A stretch of 64,000 nt of DNA from Bacteroidales bacterium (GTDB lineage: Bacteria > Bacteroidota > Bacteroidia > Bacteroidales > VadinHA17). The notes below the pieces were generated by a model. The model ran no database searches and was not told the origin of the DNA. It saw nothing but the letters and a program-made list of their open reading frames with translations. The DNA lies in NCBI GenBank assembly GCA_034005245.1, contig JAVEVC010000001.1, positions 64,852 to 128,851 of the forward strand. Direction: 5' to 3'. Made by a program: the position numbers and the translations under genes. Within the stretch, counting starts at the first letter, position 1; every line of letters begins with the position of its first letter. Shown piece after piece: positions 2,485-56,055 of the stretch.

Positions 2485-3366
2485 ATGAAAGCATACGTGT
2501 TTCCGGGCCAGGGAGCCCAGTATCGGGGCATAGGTCTCGATCTTTACGAAAAATCATCCCTTGCAAGGGAAATGTTCGAAACGGCCAATATTTTACTCGG
2601 CTTCCCGATTACCGAAATAATGTTCACTGGCAGTGATGAAGAACTAAGACAGACGAAAGTTACCCAGCCTTCTATTTATCTGCATTCCGTCATTCTTGCT
2701 ACTGTGCTGGGCAAAAGGTTCAAACCGGAAATGACTGCCGGTCATTCACTTGGAGAATTCTCTGCCCTGGTGGCCAGCAGGGCTCTGTCATTCGAGAACG
2801 GACTGCTGCTCGTTTCAAGAAGAGCCTTGGCAATGCAGAAAGCATGCGAAACAAATCCTTCAACAATGGCCGCAATAATAGGTCTCGACGATAATACTGT
2901 TGTGCAGGTTTGTTCTTCAATTAAAGATACTGTGGTACCGGCTAACTACAACAGCCCAGAACAAATTGTCATTTCAGGATCGAATGAAGGAATTGAAAAA
3001 GCAATTATCCTCCTGAAAGAAAAGGGAGCCCGAAGAGCCATAAAACTGCAGGTAGGAGGAGCTTTTCATTCACCACTGATGGAGCCAGCAAGGGCAGAAC
3101 TTGAAAATGCGATAATGGAATCTGACTTCCACAAGCCACTATGCCCTGTTTACCAGAATGTAACCGCGATGCCTTCAACGGATCCTGCTGTAATAAGGCA
3201 GAACCTTATAGCACAATTGACTTCACCGGTAAAATGGACCCAGACCATCAGCAATATGATCCGTGACGGTGCAACATCTTTCACTGAGGTCGGACCAGGG
3301 AATGTCCTGCAGGGATTGATCAAAAAAATAAGCAATGATGCAGTAATTGAAAGCGCTGTTATCTGA
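2485..3366 (+). CDS. fabD: malonyl-CoA:ACP transacylase
   Basis: 293 aa. Contains FPGQGAQ, the GHSLGE active-site serine motif and GAFHS. Confidence 0.9.
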   Translation: MKAYVFPGQGAQYRGIGLDLYEKSSLAREMFETANILLGFPITEIMFTGSDEELRQTKVTQPSIYLHSVILATVLGKRFKPEMTAGHSLGEFSALVASRALSFENGLLLVSRRALAMQKACETNPSTMAAIIGLDDNTVVQVCSSIKDTVVPANYNSPEQIVISGSNEGIEKAIILLKEKGARRAIKLQVGGAFHSPLMEPARAELENAIMESDFHKPLCPVYQNVTAMPSTDPAVIRQNLIAQLTSPVKWTQTISNMIRDGATSFTEVGPGNVLQGLIKKISNDAVIESAVI

Positions 3367-22979: not shown

Positions 22980-23108
22980 ACAGGAGCCCCGGTAAGTCCA
23001 TAACCATGAGCCGTGTTTTTCAACATATAACAGGATAATTTCTTCATTGACATCCATCAGCAGCATCTATTCTCCTGACATGCTGATATACCTGAAACGA
23101 ATGTTTGT

Positions 23109-23717
23109 CTAATGCAAATGCTTCTCAATTATGGAAATAAGTACCTCAATCCCTACCTGGTTCTCACCGCCTCCGGGAATTATTATGTCGGCATACCTCT
23201 TTGAGGGTTCAATGAACTGCAAATGCGATGGCTTAACAGTATCATGATATCTTTCAAGCACATTCATAACTGAACGCCCCCTCTCTACAATATCCCTTTG
23301 AATAACCCTCCCAAGCCGGTCATCCGGATCAGCATCTACAAATACCTTAATGTCGAGCAGCTTCCTTAGCTCACTGTCAGCCAAAATAAGAATCCCCTCA
23401 ACAAGCACAACTCTTGCCGGTTTTACAGGTATTGTTTCCTGCGATCTTATGCATGTGAGATAAGAATAAACCGGCATTTTAATACTCTTGCCCTGATTAA
23501 GCTCCTTCAGTTGTTCTATCAGCAGCGTGAATTCTACAGAATCTGGATGATCAAAATTGATCTTTTGTCTTTCTTCAAGCGGTATGTGACTGTTATCCCT
23601 GTAATAAGCATCCTGTGGTATAACTGTTACTTCTTCATTGGGAAACCTCTCCATCACCTTCTTTACCACAGTTGTTTTTCCTGAGCCTGTTCCGCCGGCT
23701 ATTCCCACTATAAGCAT
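23109..23717 (-). CDS. udk: uridine kinase
   Basis: P-loop GIAGGTGSGKTT lies right after the internal Met. The 85-aa N-terminal extension in the ORF track (to 23972) has no kinase similarity and overlaps manA on the other strand, so I trimmed to the ATG at 23717. Confidence 0.85.
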   Translation of the reverse strand: MLIVGIAGGTGSGKTTVVKKVMERFPNEEVTVIPQDAYYRDNSHIPLEERQKINFDHPDSVEFTLLIEQLKELNQGKSIKMPVYSYLTCIRSQETIPVKPARVVLVEGILILADSELRKLLDIKVFVDADPDDRLGRVIQRDIVERGRSVMNVLERYHDTVKPSHLQFIEPSKRYADIIIPGGGENQVGIEVLISIIEKHLH

Positions 23718-23772
23718 ATTTTCCTTATTTTTGTAAAGTACTAGTCCCAAAAATAATAAATAGTCCAAATCA

Positions 23773-24768
23773 ATGTCGGAATTATATCCTTTAAAGTTTG
23801 AACCTGTTGTTAAGGAGAAAATATGGGGCGGCCATTCTCTTGCAGAGCAATACGGGAAAAATGAAGATGGTCTGAAAAACATAGGTGAGAGCTGGGAAAT
23901 TTCCGCCGTCTCGGATAATCTTTCGGTTGTTAGTAATGGCTTCCTTGCAGGCAACAATATAGAGGAGATCATTGAGGTTTACATGGGCGACATCACAGGT
24001 GATTCAGTTTACGATAAATTTGGCAAGGAATTTCCCCTTCTTATAAAATTGATTGAATCAAAGGATGTCCTTTCAATACAGGTTCACCCCGGCGACGAAC
24101 TTTCCAGAAAGCGGCACCATGCCTATGGAAAGACTGAGATGTGGTATATTCTCGGAAGCGAAAACGATTCAAAAATATACACCGGTTTTACCGAAGCGGT
24201 AACCCGTGAAAGATACGTAGAAGCATTGAACAATGGCAGCCTTCCTGACCTTCTCAATGTTGAAGAGGCTGTTGCCGGTGATGCATTTTTTACTCCGGCC
24301 GGAAGGATACATGCTATCGGCTCTGGACTGGTGCTGGTGGAGATACAACAAACTTCAGACATAACATACAGGATATATGACTGGGGAAGAACGGGCCTCG
24401 ATGGGAAGCTAAGAGAACTGCATACAGACCTTGCACTCGAAGCAATAGATTTCACAGCAGCCGGTCCAAATAAAATAAGGGTGGAACCTGAAGATAATAA
24501 AACGCTGAATCTGGTGAGAAGTGTTTACTTCAACACGAACATTCTGAAATTTAATGAAATAATTGAAAAAGATTACAACCTGATAGACTCATTTGTTATC
24601 TACATTTGCACTGAAGGCAGATTCCTTATAAACTGGAATAACAGCTCTGAAATGGTGACTAAAGGTGAAACAGTCCTTGTTCCTGCTTCAGTAAGAGAAA
24701 TAACCCTCGAACCTGAAAAGGAAACGACTCTCCTTGAAATATACATTGACCAGAATCAATTAAAATAA
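23773..24768 (+). CDS. manA: class I mannose-6-phosphate isomerase
   Basis: 331 aa. Contains KIWGG, LSIQVHPGD, KTEMWYIL and a cupin-type His motif (IHAIG). Confidence 0.7.
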   Translation: MSELYPLKFEPVVKEKIWGGHSLAEQYGKNEDGLKNIGESWEISAVSDNLSVVSNGFLAGNNIEEIIEVYMGDITGDSVYDKFGKEFPLLIKLIESKDVLSIQVHPGDELSRKRHHAYGKTEMWYILGSENDSKIYTGFTEAVTRERYVEALNNGSLPDLLNVEEAVAGDAFFTPAGRIHAIGSGLVLVEIQQTSDITYRIYDWGRTGLDGKLRELHTDLALEAIDFTAAGPNKIRVEPEDNKTLNLVRSVYFNTNILKFNEIIEKDYNLIDSFVIYICTEGRFLINWNNSSEMVTKGETVLVPASVREITLEPEKETTLLEIYIDQNQLK

Positions 24769-52039: not shown

Positions 52040-53947
52040 TTATTCGCATGTGACTTCCTCCTTTTCTCCACGGCATAATTTTCTGTTTTCTTTCGACGGA
52101 GAAGGTATGAATTCACCCAATCCCAAAGCCTCCCATTTCCTGTCAACATTCAAGGCCGTTTCCTTTGAAGAGCATACTACATTAGGCCATTTTCGCGGAA
52201 AAGGCCTGCCGCTCCGGCAGAGCTTTATTGTTCCATCAATCAGCATGCATTCTGAATCAATCATCCTGTGGTCCCTCATCGGATCGGAATTGCCTAGTAC
52301 CTGCCAGGCAACCCTGAAATAGTCATGCGGATCAACTTCTTTGTCAACAACAAGAACCAGCCTGAATATATCGGATATCCGATTCTTCTTTATGGTTCCT
52401 GAGATCCTGTCAATTGCAGCCTCACCTCCGGAAAGATCAGCAGAAAGGATAAGCACAGGAATATCTTCTTCCATCAGACGGCAATCGGAATCTATAATAA
52501 CATCTCCGACAAGGCAGTCGGAAGTATTTTCTTCTGCAAACTTAACGGAAAGTTTTATTGTTGTTGTCTCGCTGCGTCCTGCTCTCTCCTCAGGTAATTT
52601 AACAGTGGCATCTATTCCTGCCTTACCCCCGAATGCCTGGCTGTCTGAAGCATGGTCAAGGACGTCGAGAGGACCCCTGCTGAAGATAACATCCGTATCA
52701 AAGCCGGTATTCTCAAAGACAGTCCGGCATAATTCCATGTAATTTCTGATATTGATGTTCCCGCTGACAACCACAAGGTATTTCGTGAACATCATCTGCC
52801 CGGCTCCAAAAAGTGAGTTTATGACTTTCATTCCCTGGCCGGGAAATCTCTTGCTGATCTTAACAATAACAAGGTTATGTGCCACTCCCGGATCGGGCAT
52901 ATGAAAATCCTCTATTTCCGGCTGCAGGGCGATTCTTACCGGAGAAAGAAAGATCTTTTCAGTTGCTTGTGCCAGCCATGAATCCTCCTGTGGGGGAATG
53001 CCTACTATAGTAGCCGGATAAACGGCATTTCGTGAATGGGTAATGCAGGTTACATGGAATCTGGGATACCAGTCGGCCAGGGAATAGAATCCGGTATGAT
53101 CGCCAAATGGCCCTTCCCACACAGGCTGTTCAGATGGATCAATATAACCTTCAATGACTATATCAGCATCATAAGGCACATAGATATCACAGGTAATGCA
53201 TTTCACAAGCTTCACTTTTCTTTCTCTCAGGAAGCCAGCAAGAATATACTCACTGACATTTTCCGGGAGTGGTGCAGTGGCCGAGTATGCATAGACCGGA
53301 TCTCCTCCCAGCGAAACAGCTACAGGCATTTTCCTGTTCGCATTTTTCCACGCCTCGAAATGGACGGCTCCGGTTTTATGCCTCTGCCAGTGCATAGCTG
53401 TGGAATTTCTGTCGAGGATCTGCATCCTGTACATTCCCGCATTAACACTTCCTGTGTCGGGATGGCAGGTATGAACTACAGGCAGTGTTATATAGGGTCC
53501 TCCATCGTGAGGCCAGCATTTAAGAACAGGAAGGATACCAAGGTCAGGTTCGGTATGGATTACCTGCTGGCACACACCCCGTTGTTTTGTTTTCATGGGA
53601 AGATATCCAGCCAGCCTGGCCAGTGAAGGCAAAGCCGACAGGTTTTGCAGGATGCCGCGGGAGTTTAAGCCAGTGAAACTGAAAATGTTGCCAATTCTTC
53701 GGGCGTGTTCCTCCGGGTCTTTATTTCCGAGGGCAAGCTTCAATTTAAGAGGTGATCCATAGGCATTTATGAGTACCGGAAATAATGTACCGGTATTTTC
53801 AAAGAGCAATGCTTTACCCTCTTTTTTGGATATCCTGTCAGTCACTTCAGCTATTTCAAGCACCGGATCGACAAATGTTTTTACCCTGATGAGTTCTCCG
53901 TGTTTATCAAGCTCATGAATAAAGCCGGTCAGTCCTGAGTAAGTCAT
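52040..53947 (-). CDS. UbiD-family decarboxylase (long, menaquinone-biosynthesis type)
   Basis: 635 aa. UbiD core motifs are present (GPYITLP, MHWQxHK, GGDP, FGDHTGFY), plus a roughly 130-aa C-terminal extension. mqnB and mqnD in the same window give futalosine-pathway context. Confidence 0.8.
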   Translation of the reverse strand: MTYSGLTGFIHELDKHGELIRVKTFVDPVLEIAEVTDRISKKEGKALLFENTGTLFPVLINAYGSPLKLKLALGNKDPEEHARRIGNIFSFTGLNSRGILQNLSALPSLARLAGYLPMKTKQRGVCQQVIHTEPDLGILPVLKCWPHDGGPYITLPVVHTCHPDTGSVNAGMYRMQILDRNSTAMHWQRHKTGAVHFEAWKNANRKMPVAVSLGGDPVYAYSATAPLPENVSEYILAGFLRERKVKLVKCITCDIYVPYDADIVIEGYIDPSEQPVWEGPFGDHTGFYSLADWYPRFHVTCITHSRNAVYPATIVGIPPQEDSWLAQATEKIFLSPVRIALQPEIEDFHMPDPGVAHNLVIVKISKRFPGQGMKVINSLFGAGQMMFTKYLVVVSGNINIRNYMELCRTVFENTGFDTDVIFSRGPLDVLDHASDSQAFGGKAGIDATVKLPEERAGRSETTTIKLSVKFAEENTSDCLVGDVIIDSDCRLMEEDIPVLILSADLSGGEAAIDRISGTIKKNRISDIFRLVLVVDKEVDPHDYFRVAWQVLGNSDPMRDHRMIDSECMLIDGTIKLCRSGRPFPRKWPNVVCSSKETALNVDRKWEALGLGEFIPSPSKENRKLCRGEKEEVTCE

Positions 53948-54047
53948 GGATAATAAAGTGATAAGGCTTAAAGATATTTAAATAGCGGGAAAAATATGCG
54001 AAAAATGGTCAGAACAGCTCTCAGGCAGGAGGAAATGATTGAATATA

Positions 54048-54092
54048 TATATAAAACAATAATGGGAACTATTCCTTGGAGTAGTTCCCATT
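54048..54092 (-). terminator. intrinsic terminator of the candidate RNA gene
   Basis: On the minus strand, AAUGGGAACUA-CUCCAAGGAA-UAGUUCCCAUU (11-bp stem) is followed by AUUGUUUUAU. Confidence 0.65.
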
Positions 54093-54545
54093 CACAACAG
54101 GTAACCGAAGTTTCCTGCAGCGTCAGGTTACTGTTATTATGGTCGGCTGCATTTCCTGACCGAGATCCGGTTATGCAACCCCTGACTTTCGGGTAATGCT
54201 TGTTACGGCAAAACCTTTTGGTTGTCCTTTTGTCCGTTTTGAGGCGGACTTCCGGGACGAAGCGTCATTCAGGCCCCTTCTGTAGTTTCCCGAAGGATAC
54301 AGCATCCGGTTTAAGTTGACAGCAGCCGAAGCTGTTTTCTTCTTAAGCCCTGTGACTCAATCTCTGAAAGAACGTTTCCGGTTTCATCGATCTGCCGGAC
54401 ATTCTGAACCGAAGTTCAGTAGTTCGGACTTCGGCTCTCCCGATGTGCAGACCCGGAGGTCTGAATGAACTGGATCTTGCTTCAGTTAAGAAACCTTTTC
54501 CGGTTCCGCATCGTTTGAGCAACCTTTTATCGCTCACCTGATAGA
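54093..54545 (-). ncRNA. unclassified, highly structured RNA candidate of roughly 450 nt
   Basis: G+C-rich island in an AT-rich 824-bp non-coding gap. On the minus strand it forms a chain of hairpins, four capped by cUUCGg tetraloops, plus a long-range helix. It is bounded by a TAnnTTTG box and an intrinsic terminator. The only ORF is an implausible 68-aa Arg/Ser/Gly-rich frame. Confidence 0.55.
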
Positions 54546-54546
54546 T

Positions 54547-54554
54547 CAAATATA
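54547..54554 (-). promoter_or_regulatory. Bacteroidota-type -7 promoter box (TATATTTG) for the candidate RNA
   Basis: Minus strand reads TATATTTG immediately upstream of the structured region. A TTTG lies 12 nt further upstream, which is shorter than the canonical -33/-7 spacing. Confidence 0.4.
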
Positions 54555-54615
54555 ATATAAGAAATACAAAAAAACATCATTATGTATTTCATACTTGTAC
54601 ACGCAATATGAACAT

Positions 54616-54641
54616 GAGTTATTAACAATTGTTAATAACTC
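54616..54641. repeat. perfect 26-bp palindrome GAGTTATTAACAATTGTTAATAACTC
   Basis: Verified base by base as its own reverse complement. It lies between the eno terminator and the candidate RNA promoter. Confidence 0.9.
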
Positions 54642-54710
54642 CGGAGAGCAAAGTCCAATGAGAATTTCAGACGATAGCTCAATGACGGGAAAAGAGTTTC
54701 CAGGGTACTT

Positions 54711-54738
54711 CAAAAAGAAAAATCCGGAATAACCGGAT
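54711..54738 (-). terminator. intrinsic terminator after eno
   Basis: On the minus strand, AUCCGG-UUAUU-CCGGAU is followed by UUUUCUUUUUG, about 34 nt after the eno stop. Confidence 0.55.
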
Positions 54739-54771
54739 CTTTCTTTTTACGTTAAATTTCCAATAACAGAT

Positions 54772-56055
<1,284 letters not shown>

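Follow-up and report, generated by a model that had tools for sequence, protein, structure and literature searches.

What occupies the long non-coding gap between the UbiD-family gene and eno in this Bacteroidales genome? In the window, the stretch of 64,000 nt of DNA that was analysed, the gap measures 824 nt, as the preliminary description had stated, and lies between the start of UbiD at 53947 and the end of the eno stop codon at 54772. A crude gene map confirms it as the largest gap in the window; that it is so "by far" was a slight overstatement, given a runner-up of 793 nt (22980–23772) that is itself probably coding. The flanks are AT-rich as described (26–37% G+C), whereas the supposedly G+C-rich core has a content of 46–51%, equal to the coding average. 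No believable open reading frame (ORF) is present, the longest reaching at most 68 amino acids. The gap is interpreted here as a free-standing gene for a non-coding RNA of about 490 nt; the full explanation developed below, which includes a mode of action, is given an even chance of being right.

The proposed gene is single-copy within the window and is delimited by the following features.

54053–54542, minus strand: the whole RNA gene, from the start of helix P1 to the end of the U-tract, with full-length nhmmer and profile matches in more than 110 loci
54547–54554, minus strand: −7 promoter box TATATTTG, 5 nt upstream of the first P1 nucleotide
54053–54092, minus strand: helix H24, the 3′ hairpin AAUGGGAACUA...UAGUUCCCAUU with the U-tract AUUGUUUU, near-invariant in sequence
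54722–54738, minus strand: terminator hairpin of eno, followed by a T-run, separating eno from the RNA promoter

The length, first put at about 450 nt, was refined to about 490 nt (approximately 54542–54053). The window copy comprises 491 nt, close to the family median of 496 nt in a range of 329–649 nt. The promoter assignment rests on the motif TAnnTTTG, which we take to be the Bacteroidetes −7 consensus; TAnnTTT(G/A) stands at the equivalent place in all 116 homologues, and the UUUG of the box is at least 95% invariant (116 sequences). From this spacing between the box and P1, transcription is predicted to start at about 54542–54540. At the other end, the intrinsic terminator with its U-tract was recovered as a hairpin at 54092–54061 followed by AUUGUUUU, with a stem of 13 predicted pairs rather than the 11 first described. 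H24 has the highest mean column identity (0.97) of the long helices; most of its pairs never vary within the main clade, hence no covariation test is possible there, and the stem is confirmed by compensatory changes in two distant members (L106 and L147). H24 is presumably an intrinsic terminator and probably doubles as a recognition element. The separate terminator claimed for eno was likewise located. Transcription from the RNA's own promoter to its own terminator is thus an inference from conserved consensus signals, no transcript having been observed.

The call of a structured RNA, which a lack of conservation or covariation would have undone, was borne out by abundant full-length homologues with strong compensatory covariation over 24 helices. 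The family comprises 116 distinct full-length sequences, 49–79% identical to the window copy, and their RNAalifold consensus has 24 helices and 143 pairs arranged around a tight six-way junction; a run on 27 sequences gave 112 pairs, 62 of them compensatory. Across the 116 sequences, standard pairs fill 93.0% of cells, a share that drops to 27–43% once the partners are shifted against each other, and compensatory changes occur in 97 pairs; the corresponding pairing values in a control run were 92.4% and 28–44%. Double compensatory changes affect 79 pairs compared with 39.1±3.6 in shuffles, none of 500 shuffles reaching 79, and the covariation score is 0.263 against 0.162. The minimum free energy z-scores of −5.5 (minus strand) and −4.8 (plus strand) are similar, so thermodynamics alone cannot choose the strand. 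The minus-strand reading of the preliminary description is supported instead by the consensus pairs, in which G-U (1,453) far outnumbers A-C (337). Coding of a small protein was ruled out for the RNA region, as the ORFs are not conserved among homologues: for the two longest, the length differs modulo 3 in 64 of 115 homologues and most contain internal stops. The conserved intact ORF through the homologous loci that would have counted against the RNA is not seen.

Does this RNA belong to a known family? A cmscan search with the 4,227 families of Rfam 15 gave no gathering-level match across the whole window, and at E≤10 no match within 53900–54800 overlapped the RNA core; the only matches were miRNA and sRNA noise on the eno terminator. 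The exclusion of RNase P, tmRNA, 6S and SRP RNAs, previously made by eye, is now supported by covariance models that fail to match even at E≤10 and by ARAGORN, which was applied to the window and to 15 homologous loci and detected neither a tRNA nor a tmRNA. RNase P RNA (RF00010 and relatives), whose model covers the blocks CR-I to CR-V and the P4 pseudoknot, was rejected on the absence of a model match and of conserved long-range complementarity between unpaired segments; tmRNA (RF00023), with its tRNA-like domain and tag-peptide frame, on negative results from both ARAGORN and cmscan; and 6S (RF00013) and SRP (RF00169 and large SRP) on the absence of a match at E≤10. A GGAA hairpin resembling SRP domain IV at GCCGGAAGG was discarded, as covariation backs helix H21 instead. 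OLE, GOLLD, ROOL, HEARO, raiA, Bacteroidales-1 and other large or orphan motifs had no model match in the window or in eight divergent homologues. In these eight, searched with cmscan at E≤1, no Rfam family appeared except for one sub-threshold match to CsrB in locus L198 (24.8 bits, E=0.003, against a gathering score of 71). A CsrB/RsmB-type sponge (RF00018), a class that carries numerous GGA motifs in its hairpin loops, was rejected: 14 GGA motifs are present where 11.8±2.3 are expected (z=1.0), mostly inside stems.

The RNA could still be a very divergent member of one of these families (RNase P, tmRNA, 6S, SRP, OLE, ROOL, GOLLD, HEARO, raiA or Bacteroidales-1), and its size and P1 closure, which loosely recall RNase P RNA, together with the weak CsrB match, point that way. 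This explanation receives the least credence of all those weighed here, close to none, in view of the searches above, a CsrB score far below gathering level, GGA motifs that are not enriched, and the confinement of the RNA to one clade and its absence from close relatives, unlike universal RNAs. No description of the RNA or of its invariant 12-mer was found in the open-access literature; the element of Bacteroidota that a 2026 bioRxiv preprint reports is a separate one, located near uS9/uS2. Measured against Rfam 15 and the searchable open-access literature, the RNA looks like a previously uncatalogued family. Short-read unitig assemblies break inside the RNA, as it is so conserved, and this may help to explain why it had not been catalogued earlier.

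The consensus fold divides the RNA into the following parts.

54123–54541, minus strand: P1 with a conserved irregular extension (H1), strands 54541–54528 (5′) and 54136–54123 (3′), enclosing domains A–E
54524–54536, minus strand: 5′ strand of the P1–P2 internal loop, UGAGCGAUAAAAG, at least 95% identical in 116 sequences
54129–54138, minus strand: 3′ strand of the P1–P2 internal loop, AAUAACAGUA, invariant
54434–54520, minus strand: domain A (H3–H7), double changes in 16 pairs
54259–54432, minus strand: domain B (H8–H17), variable and peripheral
54224–54258, minus strand: domain C hairpin (H18–H19), double changes in all 7 pairs of H19
54185–54222, minus strand: domain D (H20–H21), double changes in 6 of 7 pairs of H21
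54145–54180, minus strand: domain E hairpin (H22), apical region variable
54093–54122, minus strand: H23, a hairpin with a UUCG-type loop 3′ of P1, double changes in 9 of 11 pairs

The outer six base pairs of P1 join UCAGGU to (A)CCUGA, and helix 1 is paired in 99.3% of cases, with double changes in three pairs. In the P1–P2 internal loop, UGAGCGAUAAAAG is unchanged even in members that are only 49–60% identical; the pairs predicted between UGAGCGAUAAAAG and AAUAACAGUA never vary, so they lack covariation support. Domain A carries an invariant CUUAA hairpin loop (54490–54486) and a CAGACC/GGUCUG hairpin, and domain D has an internal loop rich in GAA/GAAA and a GUAAMAG apical loop. Size changes among family members fall mainly within domain B, which L029 lacks, which is cut short in the L028/L130 type and which is enlarged in L110, L132, L198, L210 and L147; the domain also contains an invariant GUUCUU (54373–54368). 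Altogether 123 of 505 columns are at least 95% invariant, concentrated in the P1–P2 internal loop, the domain A loop and H24, and most helices other than these invariant elements covary freely. Mutual information with average product correction (MI/APC) gave nothing convincing as a pseudoknot or long-range tertiary pairing, and the search for conserved 4-bp complementarity between unpaired segments returned only an unconvincing match of an A-run with the U-tract.

The genomic contexts of the RNA bear on whether it is a 5′ leader of UbiD or an independent unit. The order eno–RNA–UbiD is common to 26 GTDB Bacteroidales/Rikenellaceae metagenome-assembled genomes (MAGs), and the RNA is present in about 115 of 120 metagenome loci among the matches listed, which include peat-fen MAGs and activated-sludge contigs; all carriers are uncultured. 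In almost all main-clade loci UbiD is the next gene downstream of the RNA, in the same orientation, and the RNA remains with UbiD in three loci where eno has been lost or displaced (L002, L016 and L018). These contexts, and a P1-enclosed architecture ending in a terminator-like hairpin, are what would be seen for a cis-acting leader or giant riboswitch in which the 3′ hairpin attenuates transcription into UbiD; the invariant GUUCUU could even pair with GGGAAC of that hairpin, a complementarity read from the sequence and untested. UbiD, however, has a promoter position of its own.

53969–53976, minus strand: UbiD's own promoter position, the one-mismatch −7 box TATCTTTA, 29 nt upstream of the UbiD ATG

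In 79 of 107 homologous loci, the stretch between the RNA terminator and UbiD contains an exact TAnnTTTG, placed about 25–30 nt ahead of the ATG. Five divergent members (L100, L110, L119, L198 and L210) lie beside unrelated, convergent genes, so neither the class nor the orientation of the downstream gene is constant, and L029 keeps the 3′ hairpin without GUUCUU or any of domain B. In some relatives, moreover, eno and UbiD are neighbours separated by only about 115–210 nt, and the RNA is lacking (L025, L030, L032, L034, L035, L050, L051, L054, L076 and L077). On this evidence control of UbiD as a leader or riboswitch is rejected as very improbable, and the original view of an independent transcription unit holds, resting on the eno terminator, the UbiD −7 box and the divergent members with convergent downstream genes.

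The same distribution raises the possibility that the RNA was left behind or is carried by a mobile element or prophage, for instance as a guide RNA, an omega RNA, a retron ncRNA or part of an intron. The RNA looks inserted between two otherwise adjacent genes, it occupies different loci in different lineages, and one contig (L106) carries two diverged copies in tandem, an arrangement that would be unusual for a single-copy housekeeping ribonucleoprotein (RNP) RNA. Opposing this, no transposase, nuclease, reverse transcriptase or integrase was found near the RNA loci, nothing matched in the phage, plasmid and viral collections, the window holds a single copy, and the eno–RNA–UbiD position has been stable while the UbiD protein diverged to about 51–69% identity. 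A mobile origin is accordingly rated lower still than the leader, as barely plausible. The searches behind this assessment include blastn against phage and plasmid records, without a match, and two pattern scans of viral contigs, whose 14 matches were attributed to chance, none being recognised by the RNA profile. Three metagenome pattern matches (L120, L180 and L195) were also dismissed as chance. No recurring partner gene family adjoins the RNA, either among the ORFs near divergent members or in the inserts of L002, L016 and L018; a downstream ORF common to L100 and L119 appears PHP-domain-like, judged by its N-terminal sequence alone without a Pfam scan.

The claim of an orphan, independently transcribed and highly structured RNA outside known families is thereby upheld in all three parts, transcription being inferred from conserved signals only. 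The members at unrelated loci show that it acts in trans and not on the neighbouring UbiD. Our best guess is that it works in trans as a folded RNA particle or as an RNP scaffold, with a ribozyme or an RNA-only assembly not excluded. In this model a Bacteroidota-type promoter belonging to the gene itself would drive transcription from the first nucleotide of P1, and the transcript would end at its own hairpin and U-tract; with both ends so defined, processing would be unnecessary. The fold is shown by covariation: P1 and P2 are split by an invariant, irregular internal loop of 13×13 nt, with UGAGCGAUAAAAG opposite AAUAACAGUA; P2 opens to the tight six-way junction bearing domains A–E, and two more hairpins follow 3′ of P1. 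The P1–P2 loop, the CUUAA loop of domain A and the sequence-invariant 3′ hairpin may together form a recognition surface, mostly non-Watson–Crick in nature, with domain B as a dispensable peripheral module. That the compact fold presents these invariant elements to a conserved cellular partner is inferred and offered tentatively, a little short of an even chance, as the function is not established. The partner is most likely a protein, and none is indicated. The RNA would then be a stable RNP scaffold or a sequestering RNA, comparable to OLE, 6S or raiA, rather than a base-pairing small RNA or a riboswitch.

Loops as invariant as these would be equally in keeping with a catalytic core, an RNA–RNA contact or a contact with a ligand. 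Catalysis is the role of most large bacterial RNAs whose function is known, and the RNA could by analogy be a large ribozyme with its active site in the P1–P2 internal loop and junction. Its size, multi-way junction, stand-alone gene and invariant unpaired nucleotides beside P1, set against helices that covary, agree with such a role; the failure of MI/APC and the conserved complementarity search to find a pseudoknot or long-range tertiary pairing, the lack of similarity to every ribozyme model in Rfam, and a context that suggests no substrate or processing site make it unlikely. An RNA-only homo-oligomer, held together by loop–loop and A-minor contacts such as the UUAA of the domain A loop, is more doubtful again. 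Complexes of this sort are formed by ROOL, by GOLLD and by OLE (PMC12286853), and the ornate architecture, the absence of an associated partner gene and the palindromic UUAA within the invariant CUUAA loop are compatible with one. UUAA would, however, provide four A-U pairs only and, being invariant, is beyond covariation testing; no conserved complementary loop pair was found, and association with phages, plasmids or tRNA islands is lacking, unlike in ROOL and GOLLD. A trans-acting particle or RNP scaffold remains the preferred reading.

Large structured bacterial RNAs of unknown function are rare. To our knowledge, only about a dozen such classes exist, among them OLE, GOLLD, ROOL, HEARO and raiA. 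Several orphan classes later revealed unusual functions or structures: HEARO is a transposon-encoded guide RNA; OLE proved to be an RNP scaffold (PMC9723947); and both ROOL and GOLLD turned out to assemble as RNA nanocages (PMC12286853). With 491 nt, 24 helices, 79–97 compensatory pairs, 123 invariant columns and no conserved ORF, the RNA described here fulfils what is required of a large ornate orphan ncRNA in size (more than 400 nt), structure and lack of coding, its expression as a discrete, stable transcript being inferred from the conserved promoter and terminator signals only, and it looks like a new class of this rare kind. It is represented by more than 100 diverse sequences with a well-determined secondary structure of 24 helices, and its size variants delimit a minimal core of about 330 nt (L029); many representatives, a known fold and a minimal core together make the family ready for cryo-EM, in-line probing and ribozyme assays. 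A further proposal, that the class has its own biochemical activity, as a ribozyme or self-assembling particle, and is a core gene in a widespread uncultured anaerobic Bacteroidales lineage (peat-fen soils, activated sludge and other environmental samples), is speculative, improbable on present evidence though far from negligible; if true, it would add to a very short list beyond rRNA, RNase P, tmRNA and introns.

Among known large RNAs, type A RNase P RNA is alike in its similar size, P1-type closing helix, multi-domain fold and free-standing gene. It is universal, whereas the Bacteroidales RNA is limited to one clade, matches no RNase P model at E≤10 and has no detectable P4-like long-range pairing. 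The raiA motif RNA is about 200 nt long and occurs in Firmicutes and Actinobacteria; the Bacteroidales RNA, in contrast, is about 490 nt long and has no cmscan similarity to it. raiA is a stand-alone structured RNA of unknown function that tends to adjoin one gene without cis regulation, and the two share a stand-alone status, a conserved architecture and a preferred neighbour gene (PMC12968392). The genes for ROOL and GOLLD lie in phages or prophages close to tRNA islands, and the RNAs have pseudoknots and build nanocages (PMC12286853); the Bacteroidales RNA, like them a large multi-helix orphan that covaries strongly and for which no protein partner is known, differs in having no phage or plasmid match, nearby tRNA, detected pseudoknot or cmscan match. 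OLE belongs to Gram-positive extremophiles and anaerobes, a different phylum, and the Bacteroidales RNA has neither a match to its model nor co-transcribed partner genes of the oapA type. OLE is an ornate RNA of about 600 nt that acts as an RNP scaffold, and both it and the Bacteroidales RNA are large ornate RNAs in which invariant nucleotides are combined with covarying helices (PMC9723947).

The gap of 824 nt between eno and the UbiD-family gene is real and exceeds every other gap in a rough map of the genes in the window, and the preliminary description, which placed an orphan structured RNA gene in it, is confirmed as a whole. Pfam assignments identify rpsD, rpoA, rplQ and eno as the upstream neighbours, and a protein with UbiD_N, UbiD and UbiD_C domains as the downstream one. 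The G+C content of the gap is 46–51% in the core and 26–37% in the flanks. The gap region is unusually foldable (MFE z-scores: minus strand −5.5, plus strand −4.8), yet folding energy alone has no power to pick the strand.

Elements flanking the RNA
52040–53947, minus strand: UbiD-family gene, downstream neighbour
54772–56049, minus strand: eno, upstream neighbour
54738–54722, minus strand: separate eno terminator, read from the sequence
54554–54547, minus strand: −7 box, TATATTTG, read from the sequence

The second-largest gap of the crude non-overlapping ORF map (22980–23772, 793 nt) is probably an artefact of overlapping long ORFs at 23109–23972 (minus strand) and 23773–24768 (plus strand). 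The Pfam domains of the UbiD-family protein stop at residue 447 of 635, and the C-terminal extension of ~190 aa (residues ~448–635) matches nothing in Pfam at E ≤ 1e-5; tblastn alignments of the protein reach query residue ~618–635 in 80 relatives.

With the UbiD protein as query, 80 loci (designated L) were retrieved from GTDB representative genomes, and nhmmer detected full-length homologues of the RNA directly upstream of UbiD in 23 of them (E of 1e-62 to 1e-94), with weaker copies in three more. The 26 carriers are all MAGs of uncultured Bacteroidales, Rikenellaceae or Bacteroidota. Searched with a profile, the window contains exactly one copy, and L025 and L030–L080 contain none. Two invariant 5′ blocks, combined into a search pattern, recovered at least 120 metagenome loci; among the matches listed, the RNA is present in ~115 of 120, and three are chance matches. 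Where the source name of a carrier is readable, it points to peat-fen MAGs (fen_*) or to activated-sludge contigs. Deduplication left 116 distinct full-length sequences among the matches listed, which share 49–79% identity with the window copy. No relative could be found in viral, phage or plasmid collections, and an origin as a mobile-element RNA is considered highly improbable.

Several contigs end within the RNA: L215–L217 stop 447 nt upstream of UbiD (~54394 in the window), and L220, L221 and L223–L225 stop 237–258 nt past the eno stop codon (~54535–54514). These two breakpoints, one of them at the invariant 5′ block, are shared by Logan assemblies made independently from different sequencing runs, probably through de Bruijn graph branching at k-mers common to co-occurring species. 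In that case the RNA would disrupt assembly in the way rRNA does, and MAGs may under-represent it.

The consensus fold comprises closing helices P1 and P2, five domains (A–E) arranged as arms of a six-way junction, and two hairpins (H23 and H24) 3′ of P1. The original interpretation is supported, with the length revised from the ~450 nt first proposed to ~490 nt.

Consensus fold mapped onto the window
54541–54528 with 54136–54123, minus strand: P1
Inside the P1 extension, minus strand: invariant internal loop, UGAGCGAUAAAAG opposite AAUAACAGUA
Inside P1, minus strand: P2, a short helix opening into the tight six-way junction
54520–54434, minus strand: domain A
54432–54259, minus strand: domain B
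54258–54224, minus strand: domain C
54222–54185, minus strand: domain D
54180–54145, minus strand: domain E
54122–54093, minus strand: H23, a freely covarying hairpin
54092–54061, minus strand: H24, the 3′ hairpin (AAUGGGAACUA...UAGUUCCCAUU), nearly invariant and directly followed by a U-tract tail (AUUGUUUU), both read from the sequence

RNAalifold predicted 112 pairs from 27 sequences, 62 with compensatory changes, and 143 pairs in 24 helices from 116 sequences. In the larger set, standard pairs occupy 93.0% of cells, versus 27–43% with the 3′ partners slid by 1–3 columns, and 97 pairs show double changes, each of them present in two or more sequences. A separate count on the 27-sequence alignment, with slid-partner and shuffle controls, gave 92.4% standard-pair cells (28–44% with slid partners), 79 pairs changed on both sides (39.1 ± 3.6 in shuffles; 0 of 500 reached 79) and a covariation score of 0.263 (0.162 in shuffles). 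Since G–U cells far exceed A–C cells in the consensus pairs (1453 versus 337), the RNA is fixed on the window minus strand. The earlier view that the gap holds no believable ORF also stands: none exceeds 68 aa, and coding by the 68-aa and 44-aa ORFs was rejected because neither is conserved among homologues. For 64 of the 115 homologues in the ORF comparison the length differs modulo 3, and internal stops are lacking in only 11 for the 68-aa region and 40 for the 44-aa region.

At least 95% invariance is reached by 123 of 505 columns, clustered in the P1–P2 loop, a CUUAA hairpin loop, GUUCUU and H24. The last is a genuine stem, because the distant members L106 and L147 carry compensatory changes (AAUGGG...CCCAUU to AACGGG...CCCGU or GAAGGG...CCCUUC). 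The invariant GUUCUU (54373–54368, domain B) might form 6 bp (two of them G–U) with GGGAAC in the 3′ hairpin (54091–54084), which may offer an alternative to the terminator stem; both sides are invariant and thus beyond a covariation test, and L029 has no GUUCUU at all. No pseudoknot was found by mutual information or a conserved-complementarity search. Family members span 329–649 nt, and as the differences lie mostly in domain B, which is wholly absent from L029, the core is ~330 nt.

A TAnnTTT[G/A] box, which we take to be the Bacteroidetes −7 consensus, precedes P1 at a fixed distance in 116 of 116 sequences, implying a putative transcript start at P1. The proposed bracketing by this box and the U-tracted hairpin and the separate eno terminator are borne out, as is, by inference from sequence signals, the independent transcription unit. 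That the RNA is instead a UbiD leader is very improbable: an exact TAnnTTTG lies between the RNA hairpin and UbiD, ~25–30 nt ahead of its ATG, in 79 of 107 loci (TATCTTTA in the window), and at five of six divergent members in unrelated loci (L100, L110, L119, L132, L198 and L210) the downstream gene is convergent. The RNA is an independent gene, its expression being inferred.

In ten related loci (L025, L030, L032, L034, L035, L050, L051, L054, L076 and L077) eno and UbiD are adjacent without the RNA (gap of ~115–210 nt); the RNA thus looks like an insertion, specific to one clade, into a gene pair that is older and more widespread in Bacteroidales. That clade is the one with eno at least about 80% identical to that of the window, yet L025 (81%) lacks the RNA. 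Within the main clade the RNA stays beside UbiD where eno is lost (L002) or parted by an insert (L016, L018), which we read as inherited synteny. The L016 insert holds a 137-aa ORF (2633–3046) that looks, by sequence appearance only, like a DUF559 or Vsr-like endonuclease-fold protein; the gap in L018 is similar in size and has no long ORF. L100 (2580–3497) and L119 (749–1654) share a convergent downstream neighbour that, judged from its N-terminal sequence alone, resembles a PHP-domain protein, pointing to a second, independent syntenic context in another lineage. L106 (1–1225) carries two diverged copies in tandem, a L147-type copy cut off by the contig start and followed by a second GC-rich hairpin, and, ~130 nt further on, a complete copy of the L106 type that has a −7 box to itself; paralogues thus coexist in one genome.

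The RNA falls outside RNase P, tmRNA, 6S and SRP RNA, as originally judged: none of the 4227 Rfam 15 families reached gathering level in a cmscan of the 64-kb window, at E ≤ 10 on 53900–54800 the core stayed empty and only noise appeared, over the eno terminator and the 3′ hairpin, and ARAGORN detected neither tRNA nor tmRNA. Among eight divergent homologues the sole match was CsrB in L198 (24.8 bits, where gathering requires 71; 1260–1558, E = 0.003), in its expanded 3′ half. A CsrB relationship was rejected, and the match is probably compositional, as the window copy shows no excess of GGA (14 occurrences versus 11.8 ± 2.3 expected, mostly in stems). Full-text literature searches (the invariant 12-mer, large or ornate Bacteroidales or Bacteroidota RNAs, the main discovery papers), which did not cover subscription-only papers and unpublished motif lists, found no description; the Bacteroidota element described in a 2026 preprint, next to uS9/uS2, is a different one. 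Descent from a known family is barely credible, and given these negative results we rate the RNA, against Rfam 15 and the searchable literature, as a new family without detectable kinship and a high-interest candidate for a new class of large bacterial ncRNA.

The family is conserved, single-strand-specific, elaborately folded and not bound to one neighbouring gene, and most of its invariant positions either are unpaired or non-canonical or lie within H24. Transcription would start from its own promoter and halt at H24, and the RNA would act in trans. Our preferred reading, held at less than even confidence and by analogy, is that the RNA forms a stable particle and that a conserved partner, in all likelihood a protein, recognizes a surface made up of its invariant elements; it would then serve as an RNP scaffold or sequestering RNA. 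No partner gene recurs in the neighbourhoods examined (the divergent loci and the L002, L016 and L018 inserts), so the choice among trans-acting models rests on analogy only. Action as a ribozyme is unlikely. An RNA-only oligomer seems rather improbable; in its favour are the UUAA palindrome within the invariant loop and the precedent for such assemblies in ROOL, GOLLD and OLE (PMC12286853).
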